From a virus (lineage: Duplodnaviria > Heunggongvirae > Uroviricota > Caudoviricetes): a DNA stretch of 52,523 bases. The first letter of the stretch is position 1; each line of letters begins with the position of its first letter. The translations under genes and the position numbers were made by a program. The stretch lies in the IMG/VR virus record IMGVR_UViG_2537561965_000009; one strand, written 5' to 3'. Below, in pieces: positions 11,959 through 13,299 of this stretch. The notes under the pieces are model-generated. The model was not told where the DNA came from and made no database searches. It saw only the letters and a list, made by a program, of their open reading frames with translations.

Positions 11959-12127
11959 TTTTGGTTCAACTAAATACAACGTCAGTTTTGAAGAATGGCA
12001 TGAACTGTTAATGGACTATGCAGAGTTACGTGGTGGCAGTGCTGCTGATGCTGAAGCATGGCGTGATGATTATGAAGCAGGAAAAACTCCGGTCGAAGCA
12101 TATTGTGATGAGTGGGGCGATGAATGA
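11951..12127 (+). CDS. small hypothetical protein
   Basis: 58-aa ORF MADFGSTKYNVSFEEWHELLMDYAELRGG... found manually; overlaps neighbours by a few nucleotides. Confidence 0.4.
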   Translation: MADFGSTKYNVSFEEWHELLMDYAELRGGSAADAEAWRDDYEAGKTPVEAYCDEWGDE

Positions 12128-12440
12128 GCGAGGTTAATTATCAGGAAGGGCATGAAACGGCGGGGCAAGCAAAAACAGTGGCATGGCGATATCGCTACGT
12201 GAAAAAAAAGGCGTTACGGACTTTCAGGGGAAGTAGTGGTCTGGTGACTGGAAATATGTACCGAAAAAAGAGGATTGTAACGACAGGCCGAACTATGAAA
12301 TTCAGGCCTTATTCACTGCCCCGCCAGTCCCGGTTACATCAGAAGAACTGGTTAAAGCTGTGCACTTTTATGAACAACTAAAACGCGAAAATCCACCAGC
12401 ATCCGGAAACCTGATTACAGATTCCCAGATAAGGCAATGA
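12124..12440 (+). pseudogene. probable disrupted gene (frame change at an A8 tract plus in-frame amber codon)
   Basis: ATG 12124 opens a protein-like N-terminus up to the A8 run at 12202-12209; the protein-like C-terminal segment WSGDWKYVPKKEDCNDRPNYEIQALFTAPPVPVTSEELVKAVHFYEQLKRENPPASGNLITDSQIRQ lies in another frame, has no start codon and follows a TAG at 12234-12236. Confidence 0.35.
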
Positions 12441-12610
12441 GCTACCTGGCGCAGAACGGGCTGATAAGTATGGGGAATGTTTTACGATGAATATTTAGAC
12501 TAAAGAGTTTGTAACGCTATGTAAGTGATTTTTTCTGGTTTAGATATTTATATATCCGGCCAAATTGAGGTGTGTTTAAATGTAATTGCACATTGATTGT
12601 AGGAGGAATA

Positions 12611-12790
12611 ATGAAAAACGCATTGCAGTTTTTGTTTGTTGCGTTCTGGTTGTTCGTATCATGTATGCCCATCATCTTCACAGCAAGGTATATGGAAAAA
12701 GTTGATGTTTTGATATTAATATTTGGATATATAAATGCCCTTTTTTTAGGGGTGTTCATGGCGGTCATGTGCATTGAATACTGGCGGTAA
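12611..12790 (+). CDS. small two-helix membrane protein (moron candidate)
   Basis: 59-aa hydrophobic product MKNALQFLFVAFWLFVSCMPIIF... with strong AGGAGG SD at ideal spacing; lies in an AT-rich islet. Confidence 0.45.
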   Translation: MKNALQFLFVAFWLFVSCMPIIFTARYMEKVDVLILIFGYINALFLGVFMAVMCIEYWR

Positions 12791-12935
12791 ATACAGCGAA
12801 CGCCATTGGTTTAGTTGGATATTTACTGTGCCGGACAAAAACGGTTTGCGGGGAAATCTTAGTTAAGTAGAATGACTGCGGGTGCTTGAGGCTATCTGTC
12901 TCAGGCATGAACACCAAAAGGCAGATAGAGAAAAG

Positions 12936-13000
12936 CCCCAGTTAACATTACGCGTCCTGCAAGACGCTTAACATTAATCTGAGGCCATATCTATGCTCTA
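12936..13000 (-). ncRNA. sok: candidate Sok antisense RNA
   Basis: Minus-strand promoter-like TTGCCT (rc of 13031-13036) and TAACCT (rc of 13007-13012) with 17-bp spacer, positioned like the sok promoter of hok/sok loci; extent is an estimate. Confidence 0.35.
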
Positions 13001-13205
13001 CACACGTAGGTTAGCCTCTTACGTGCCGAAAGGCAAGGAGAAGCAGGCTATGAAGCAGCAAAAGGCGATGCTAATCGCCCTGATCGTCATCTGTTTAACC
13101 GTCATAGTGACGGCACTGGTAACGAGGAAAGACCTCTGCGAGGTACGAATCCGAACCGGCCAGACGGAGGTCGCTGTCTTCACAGCTTACGAACCTGAGG
13201 AGTAA
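12993..13205 (+). CDS. mok: mok-like leader reading frame of the hok locus
   Basis: ORF starting upstream of hok and running to the same stop (here in frame with hok); the 5' leader matches the conserved hok mRNA pattern GCTTGAGGC...AGCCTCTTAC...AAGGAGAAG. Confidence 0.4.
   Translation: MLYTRRLASYVPKGKEKQAMKQQKAMLIALIVICLTVIVTALVTRKDLCEVRIRTGQTEVAVFTAYEPEE
13050..13205 (+). CDS. hok: Hok/Gef-family type I toxin
   Basis: 51-aa product MKQQKAMLIALIVICLTVIVTALVTRKDLCEVRIRTGQTEVAVFTAYEPEE has the Hok signature; AGGAG SD at 13036-13040. Confidence 0.85.
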   Translation: MKQQKAMLIALIVICLTVIVTALVTRKDLCEVRIRTGQTEVAVFTAYEPEE

Positions 13206-13273
13206 GAGACCAGGCGGGGGAGAATCCCTCGCCACCTCTGATGTGTCAGGCATCCTCAACGCACCCGCACTTA

Positions 13274-13299
13274 ACCCGCTTCGGCGGGTTTTGTTTTTT
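13274..13299 (+). terminator. rho-independent terminator of the hok transcript
   Basis: ACCCGC-TTCG-GCGGGT hairpin followed by a T-rich run; an upstream 3' element CCTCAACGCACCC is complementary to the 5' GGGTGCTTGAGG (fold-back pairing). Confidence 0.6.

Follow-up and report, generated by a model that had tools for sequence, protein, structure and literature searches.

Sequence conservation points to a 59-codon gene for a small membrane protein upstream of hok/sok in Qin/Rac-like prophages

Introduction

Exclusion factors, toxins and modulators of host transporters have repeatedly been found among the small membrane proteins of prophages. T4 Imm, HK97 gp15, Cor (phi80, N15 and T1) and Llp (T5) are small accessory phage proteins of the envelope, and several phage exclusion factors, e.g. 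Cor and Llp, are lipoproteins. The Hok/Gef toxins are small hydrophobic membrane peptides with one transmembrane (TM) helix, GhoT/OrtT of E. coli (57 aa) have two predicted TM helices, and class II holins and pinholins (65–95 aa) also have two. Morons, in the sense of Juhala and Hendrix, are genes of deviant base composition and patchy presence that are inserted between two genes of a conserved operon. The current study concerns an open reading frame (ORF) of 59 codons in a 52,523-nt stretch of viral DNA (IMG/VR record IMGVR_UViG_2537561965_000009; the whole stretch is referred to below as the window). The ORF lies in a low-GC islet, as delimited here 346 nt long (table 1), and was first noticed in a reading of the letters without database searches (the sequence-only reading), which proposed that it encodes a two-helix membrane protein at a moron site next to hok.

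Results and Discussion

A conserved protein-coding gene

The ORF runs on the plus strand from an ATG at 12611 to a TAA at 12788–12790, and its product is MKNALQFLFVAFWLFVSCMPIIFTARYMEKVDVLILIFGYINALFLGVFMAVMCIEYWR. Judged by its conservation in a diverged homolog, it is a genuine protein-coding gene. A tblastn search of a plasmid collection (72,556 records) detected two large records with a full-length match of 40.7% amino acid identity, both of which are really chromosomal sequence. These records, NZ_CP141085.1 and CP054253.1, are labelled as plasmids and hold the chromosomal genes zntB, dbpA, ttcA, uspF and ompN. The copies of this type are referred to as clade B, and those of the window type as clade A.

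The clade B locus lies between ttcA and uspF and adjoins an integrase fragment, indicating that it is a decayed prophage remnant. Its ORF is exactly 59 codons long (MRKILMYLCISIWIVISCVPIILTSEYLTEASIMALMFGHANALCIGVFISIIYIECWR) and aligns to the window ORF without gaps. The two ORFs share 60% nucleotide identity, with 25, 16 and 31 differences at codon positions 1, 2 and 3, respectively; the proportions of differing nonsynonymous and synonymous sites are 0.33 (pN) and 0.72 (pS), corresponding to a dN/dS ratio of about 0.19, which is rough because dS is saturated. When the same 72 substitutions were randomly re-placed on like bases, an amino acid identity as high as that observed was obtained in 1.8% of the trials, the frame was kept from start to stop in 0.14%, and both were obtained jointly in 0.005% (p ~5e-5). 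The homology between the clades extends over the whole islet, including the junction with the upstream gene and about 45 nt past the stop codon, and insertions and deletions are found in the flanks only, none within the ORF. Frame, start and stop are thus conserved in a diverged homolog with a substitution pattern typical of coding sequence, and by this comparison the protein has been under purifying selection over the A–B divergence. Lack of conservation, which the sequence-only reading had named as the result that would tell against its proposal, was not what was found, and the start, stop and length that it had given are read directly from the sequence.

In clade B an in-frame stop codon lies six codons upstream of the ATG, which indicates that the ATG shared by both clades is the conserved start. 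The same stop codon argues against the 72-aa form with a GTG start that is given in some GenBank records. Downstream of the clade B copy only the 3' half of hok is left (locus L206, 5215–5300, E. coli KE48, a "plasmid" that is really chromosome), and the promoter, the sok region and about 25 codons at the start of hok are deleted; here the small ORF has remained whole where its neighbor hok has decayed.

On the minus strand of the window there is an 85-aa ORF at 12517–12774, which is named "hornerin" in two GenBank phage records and hypothetical in a third. As a real gene it was rejected, since the frame is closed in clade B, where only a 33-aa minus-strand ORF overlaps, and no family match was found. 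The "hornerin" annotation is probably spurious, so that two phage records hold a spurious opposite-strand gene in place of the 59-codon ORF.

Several further observations, like the saturation of dS, weigh against a coding gene under long-term constraint. The length of the ORF alone is not significant, since an ATG-initiated ORF of at least 59 aa arose in 288 of 5000 shuffles of the islet (5.8%). The conservation covers two clades only, and hence one deep comparison. Among 96 clade A loci eight sites of the ORF vary, and all eight changes are nonsynonymous (V16A, M28I, V31I, I37M, Y40H, L44I, V48G and V52G); with these small numbers and no synonymous variable site, purifying selection was not detected within the clade. 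To judge from these sites, the 8:0 pattern fits neutrality, or relaxed or diversifying selection, and not the long-term ratio of 0.19. A diverged copy in L205, a 4.4-Mb genome labelled "E. coli", is broken by three 1-nt deletions and also carries a 3-nt insertion, and rare database variants carry frameshifts or insertion sequence (IS) elements in the ORF.

Conservation was counted in loci chosen by a flanking DNA pattern; loci picked by protein identity are a biased sample. The IMG/VR loci were fetched with the exact 34-nt pattern at 12840–12873 (hok promoter region), and the constancy of that block is therefore by construction. In this sample the ORF was intact in all 104 complete copies. The last 60 nt of the ORF (12731–12790, including the T7 run listed in table 1) were exact in 1540 of 1554 complete carrier genomes and non-exact in 14, and 1552 of 1571 records covered at least 80% of a 421-nt query around the ORF. 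In rare entries (P0026–P0039) at least eight different junctions truncate the ORF, and one IS end (…IDWPPESPDNQYHLNK) is found at two different positions, suggesting that the AT-rich ORF is a recurrent IS target. The window alleles I37 and Y40 are derived; they replace M37 and H40, which clade B also has.

Base composition and ribosome-binding site

The low-GC patch was evident as described before: the GC content of the islet is 0.353, as compared to 0.469 in the 2 kb to its left, 0.523 in the 2 kb to its right and 0.51 in the entire window, and in 200-nt windows over 12400–12800 it falls to 0.35–0.37. Within the ORF the GC content at codon positions 1, 2 and 3 is 0.34, 0.27 and 0.51, respectively. 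The excess at the third position over the first two is as expected of a coding frame, and the third position equals the window average, which suggests that the low GC of the ORF is largely an amino acid effect (codons for Phe, Ile, Leu, Val and Met).

The sequence-only reading had also described a ribosome-binding site, AGGAGG, at ideal spacing. The motif is present, but a spacer of 4 nt between a Shine-Dalgarno sequence and the ATG is short, not ideal, and the site reads AGGGGG in 40 of 96 sampled clade A alleles (A to G at 12604). Clade B has a weaker site, AGGGA with an 8-nt spacer, and the decayed copy in L205 has GGAG.

The predicted protein

The product of the ORF is predicted to be a small membrane protein with the form of a helical hairpin. 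The two hydrophobic segments expected by the sequence-only reading were found at about residues 4–24 and 33–55, with a grand average of hydropathy (GRAVY) of 1.31, and AlphaFold2, run with an alignment of seven sequences, predicted helices at residues 2–26 and 31–58 with a mean pLDDT (predicted local distance difference test) of 73.

The residues invariant in clades A and B are M1, L5, L8, W13, S17, C18, P20, I21, I22, T24 and L36, followed by F38, G39, N42, A43, L44, V48, F49, E56, W58 and R59. They include three conserved blocks, SC-x-PII-x-T (17–24), FG-xx-NAL-xx-GVF (38–49) and IE-x-WR (55–59). The second TM helix (TM2) bears a small-residue face, G39-xxx-A43-xxx-G47; such a G-xxx-A-xxx-G face is a common helix-packing motif. 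The N-terminus is basic in both clades (MK in A, MRK in B), and the loop between the helices is neutral in A (ARYMEKVD) and acidic in B (SEYLTEAS). According to the positive-inside rule, these charges point to an N-in/C-in topology with a short periplasmic loop.

Prophage context and the islet as a cassette

A 421-nt segment around the ORF matches E. coli CFT073 and many further genomes at 100% identity. The order of genes in CFT073 is: a Cro-like regulator, a YdaT-family protein, a replication-region protein, DUF977, DUF7167, a frameshifted hypothetical gene, an unannotated gap that holds the ORF, hokD, a Rem-like protein, DUF968/YdfU, RusA and the Q antiterminator. With replication genes on one side and RusA and Q on the other, the locus is the nin-equivalent early-right region of a Qin/Rac-like lambdoid prophage, in agreement with the nin-like location proposed earlier. 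The positions of all features are given in table 1.

Table 1. Positions in the window of the 59-codon gene, its signals and the neighboring features.
Feature	Position	Strand	Evidence
59-aa small membrane protein gene (clade A; predicted hairpin)	12611..12790	+	ORF read from sequence; clade B homolog; AlphaFold2 hairpin
Shine-Dalgarno sequence AGGAGG, 4 nt 5' of the ATG	12601..12606	+	Read directly
Codons of invariant Ser17-Cys18, candidate lipobox (LFVS|C)	12659..12664	+	Invariant in both clades; PS00013-type rule
T7 homopolymer in codons 44–46, site of rare frameshift variants	12741..12747	+	Variants P0019 and P0021–P0025 branch here
Low-GC islet, 346 nt, GC 0.353	12490..12835	.	Composition; presence/absence
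Upstream early gene, weak phrog_660 match, frameshifted in the window	12124..12489	+	PHROG E=0.006; PGAP "frameshifted; internal stop" in CFT073
Promoter-like TTGCGG-16 nt-TAGAAT for hok mRNA; start of the hok/sok module, not part of the small gene	12846..12873	+	Read from sequence
hok/sok locus: leader with sok region 12880–13055, hok coding sequence 13050–13205	12880..13205	+	Rfam RF01794, 117 bits; Pfam HOK_GEF

The islet lies between the stop codon (TGA, 12487–12489) of the upstream gene and the hok promoter region. Twelve IMG/VR loci are homologous to the window only from about 12833 onwards; the hok module and the upstream gene are present there, and the islet is absent. In these loci the upstream gene is intact (140 aa) and ends in ...GTTTTACGATGA. 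Its stop is overlapped (ATGA) by the ATG of a 27-aa hydrophobic ORF, MTWPEAFTTKGIAMAAALVVYSICSWG, which fills an 84-nt segment (L087 1137–1220, likewise in L095, L129 and others; equivalent to 12487–12835 of the window). The GTTTTACGATGA junction is also present in the window, at 12478–12489. As it is common to both types of locus, the islet can be described as a ~346-nt cassette that replaces ~84 nt between two conserved modules. The position directly upstream of hok is thus taken by either of two small hydrophobic ORFs, which are unrelated. The Qin prophage of E. coli K-12, examined in the region that holds hokD, has the hok part only and no islet.

These data bear on the proposal that the ORF occupies a moron site. 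The deviant base composition and the presence or absence of the islet between homologous phage regions are those of a moron. A promoter and a terminator of its own were not found: no sigma-70-like site of at least 9/12 was detected on the plus strand between 12100 and 12967, a lenient scan of clade A gave at best 8/12 or fewer matches, badly placed, and no intrinsic terminator was detected between 12790 and the hok promoter. The proposal is therefore supported for a low-GC cassette of patchy presence and not for an independent transcription unit. As neither signal was detected for the gene itself, co-transcription with the delayed-early operon is the simplest reading. In clade B an extended -10-like sequence, TGnCATAAT, precedes the ATG by about 75 nt (L206 4918–4926). 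Clade A does not share this sequence, and the remnant may have gained a promoter here.

An imperfect 25-nt direct repeat (12540–12564 and 12815–12839, 72% identity, 275 nt apart) flanks the ORF and may be due to chance or be the trace of an old insertion. The islet as a mobile-element remnant was rejected, this weak repeat being the only sign of it and no terminal inverted repeats being found at the islet ends.

The hok gene is located just downstream, as the sequence-only reading had stated, and the hok/sok locus is complete in the window. The product of 12993–13205 matched Pfam HOK_GEF (PF01848) with E=2.9e-23 (81.6 bits), and the sok region was matched by Rfam. The ATG at 12993 lies upstream of and in frame with hok, resulting in a 70-aa ORF, and a terminator scan placed a terminator after hok at 13273–13290. 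In many related prophages (L054–L082, in which the homology ends at 13051) and in PhiR42_1, hok is cut by an IS element just past the start-codon region, and the 59-codon ORF is intact there. The upstream gene is intact as a 140–151-aa version in L087 and L205; of the islet-bearing loci, 29 have an intact frame of this gene (at least 100 codons) that runs into the junction stop, and in 146 that frame is short.

Distribution and annotation

In a census of 5426 complete E. coli genomes, clade A was found in 1554 and clade B in 1045. Carriers of clade A include CFT073 and the temperate phages vB_EcoS-640R1, vB_EcoS-813R8 and PhiR42_1, which are recovered phages; Nissle 1917 is an example of a clade B carrier. 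Among the carriers the identity of clade A over 421 nt was at least 95%, and at least 99% in 590 records; for clade B it was at least 99% in 1037 records.

Searches for a third clade by phmmer against 1.84 billion representatives, with a profile and by tblastn of the phage and plasmid collections gave none. A search with one genome per species found carriers in E. coli/Shigella only, and the plasmid tblastn detected the ORF only in records of E. coli and Klebsiella, of which H33 and H34 proved chromosomal. Two further candidates, P0056 and P0057, are long repetitive proteins and were rejected as spurious. By these searches the family is restricted to Escherichia/Shigella and consists of two clades. 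The close relatives, all from Escherichia or Shigella, are at least 90% identical at the amino acid level and therefore say little on their own.

The gene is largely missing from current annotation. RefSeq annotation under the ORF was "none" in 39 of 40 spread clade A rows and in all clade B rows listed, and RefSeq PGAP calls no gene at the ORF in CFT073. The names found in GenBank and IMG are "Hypothetical protein c1418 [CFT073]", "putative membrane protein [UMNF18]" and "uncharacterized membrane protein", c1418 being the name of the ORF in the original CFT073 GenBank annotation. Literature matches to "c1418" refer to an unrelated locus tag (NarX), and peptide strings of the ORF were not found in a full-text literature search. 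Adding the gene would correct thousands of annotations. Small-protein surveys based on K-12 are unlikely to have met it, since no copy was found in the examined K-12 Qin region, where hokD is the K-12 counterpart of this hok locus.

Proposed role and alternatives

A search of Pfam revealed no family at E≤1 for the single sequence, or at E≤10 for the alignment members, save DUF4212 in clade B (E=0.032), which was set aside as a generic two-helix similarity. The best PHROG match had E=0.93, with no holin match; NCBIfam gave no match and PADLOC 0 families; a sequence search of the PDB gave no match, and a fold search of BFVD gave none at E≤0.001 and generic hairpins only. The function is therefore not readable from homology. 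The roles suggested by the sequence-only reading, toxin, superinfection-exclusion factor or lysis modulator, have no sequence support, as no match to Hok, GhoT/OrtT, a holin, Imm or any model of a defence system was found.

The account that we favor, with a probability of about 0.6 for the whole of it, is that the ORF is a genuine gene for a 59-residue integral membrane protein that serves as an early-operon phage accessory factor at the host envelope. Clade A would be the form carried in the early-right region of Qin/Rac-like lambdoid prophages, directly upstream of hok/sok, and clade B a form fossilised in the prophage remnant between ttcA and uspF. The gene would share the transcript of the delayed-early operon, a strong Shine-Dalgarno site would direct its translation, and the product would be a helical hairpin inserted in the inner membrane with N-in/C-in topology. 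The conserved small or polar helix face (S17, C18, T24, G39, N42, A43 and G47) may mediate helix–helix contacts in the membrane, either with another copy of the protein or with a host inner-membrane protein. The role would be accessory, e.g. entry exclusion or an effect on the activity of a membrane protein of the host, and not a core phage function. The accessory status is suggested by the 12 related loci, and by K-12 Qin, in which the hok module occurs without the islet.

A different processing of the same protein has a minor but real chance of being correct. Residues 1–17 could be a signal for signal peptidase II, leaving a 42-residue product that is lipidated at Cys18 and whose single C-terminal helix (33–55) would anchor it in the inner membrane. 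With Cys18, clade B and every clade A variant pass a PROSITE PS00013-type rule (basic residue at the N-terminus, hydrophobic region, lipobox, Cys at 15–35), as compared to 2.2% and 8.5% of composition-matched shuffles of A and B, respectively; the lipobox would be L-F-V/A-S|C in A and I-V-I-S|C in B. The adjoining Ser17-Cys18 is invariant, and the identity between the clades, 25% for residues 1–16 and 75% for residues 17–24, is the pattern expected where a signal peptide precedes a conserved mature N-terminus. The strict lipobox [LVI][ASTVI][GAS]C, however, fits clade B (VISC) and not clade A (FVSC or FASC), which fails with Phe at -3. Moreover, the hydrophobic run goes on for six residues beyond the Cys (C-M/V-P-I-I-F/L-T) to a full TM length of 21 residues, which is atypical of such signal peptides, and patterns of the PROSITE type are prone to false positives in membrane proteins.

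It is doubtful that the protein is a membrane-damaging toxin, type I-like or GhoT/OrtT-like, which would depolarise the inner membrane, e.g. as a second killer beside Hok. Its size, hydrophobicity and strong Shine-Dalgarno site would suit a toxin, as would the small-residue face of TM2 and the location next to a known type I toxin locus, and the repeated independent disruptions by IS elements and frameshifts in rare variants could reflect counter-selection. Against this, there was no match at E≤1 to Hok/Gef, GhoT_OrtT or any other Pfam toxin family. Nor was there a sign of an antitoxin RNA: no Rfam match was detected over the ORF, folding of either strand was no better than that of shuffles (z from -0.4 to -0.9), no antisense terminator and no minus-strand promoter was found in the islet region at the scan threshold, and the ORF mRNA had no fold above chance that would sequester the ribosome-binding site. 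The gene is intact in about 98–99% of ~1550 carrier genomes and in the remnant that lost hok, which does not suggest a burden. An RNA element was likewise rejected, the Rfam hits in the islet being sub-threshold and due to chance (e.g. ceN65) and the folding scores not significant.

A broader idea, which we consider improbable, is that the protein is the first of a new class of envelope factors of prophages. Lipid-anchored or folded as a hairpin, this micro-protein would either block the entry of competing phages or tune Hok, and the host would have kept its gene after the rest of the prophage decayed (clade B), i.e. domesticated it. If this were true, the reference annotation would lack a gene that roughly one third of E. 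coli strains, or more, possess.

A functional partnership with hok/sok, in which the protein modulates Hok or the islet is part of hok regulation, would account for the location of both clades directly upstream of hok but is very unlikely. All 80 protein-fetched clade A loci are homologous from the islet into hok (at least to 13051) where the contig reaches, and the 3' half of hok comes after the clade B copy. This linkage can be attributed to common descent of one phage region, and the partnership is weakened by the hok module without islet in 12 loci and K-12 Qin, by the ORF remaining intact where hok is IS-disrupted or deleted, and by the plasmid search, in which the ORF was confined to E. 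coli and Klebsiella records and was no widespread companion of plasmid hok.

Equally slight is the chance that the ORF is not a functional gene, arising by chance in an AT-rich spacer or shadowing the minus-strand "hornerin" ORF: its unremarkable length, the missing PGAP call and family match and the lack of synonymous polymorphism in clade A would agree with this, but the gapless A–B alignment with the same start and stop, the coding substitution pattern and the joint p value largely refute it, and the minus-strand frame is closed in clade B.

Comparison with known systems

GhoT/OrtT are similar to the 59-aa protein in size, in having two predicted TM helices and in their expected location in the inner membrane. 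They differ in that no sequence similarity was found and the Pfam profile gave no match, that the ORF lacks an adjacent antitoxin gene such as ghoS, and that it is prophage-borne in an early operon. Hok/Gef is likewise a small hydrophobic membrane peptide and adjoins the ORF in the same prophage region, but Hok matches PF01848 and the 59-aa protein does not, and no mok-like overlapping frame, sok-like RNA or fold-back mRNA signal was found for the 59-codon ORF. Class II holins and pinholins are phage-encoded proteins with two TM helices and an expected N-in/C-in topology, as predicted here. The 59-codon gene, in contrast, is an early-region gene that precedes RusA and Q and is not part of a late lysis cassette; its product ends in EYWR without a charged C-terminal tail and has no Pfam or PHROG holin match.

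The islet is comparable to lambdoid morons in base composition, patchy presence and insertion between two genes of a conserved operon, and differs from them in the lack of its own sigma-70 promoter (at least 9/12) or intrinsic terminator and in a low GC that is largely amino-acid-driven. The accessory exclusion proteins T4 Imm, HK97 gp15, Cor and Llp are similar in being small phage proteins of the envelope, and the lipobox-like motif at Cys18 recalls Cor and Llp; the 59-aa protein has no homology to any Pfam, PHROG or PADLOC model, and, unlike soluble outer-membrane lipoproteins, it is hydrophobic past the Cys and ends in a TM helix. Nothing found points to a new principle. The 59-aa protein is best filed as a new, narrow family within a known kind, the small prophage-encoded membrane proteins, and as a conserved gene beside hok/sok in uropathogenic and probiotic strains it is a tractable candidate.

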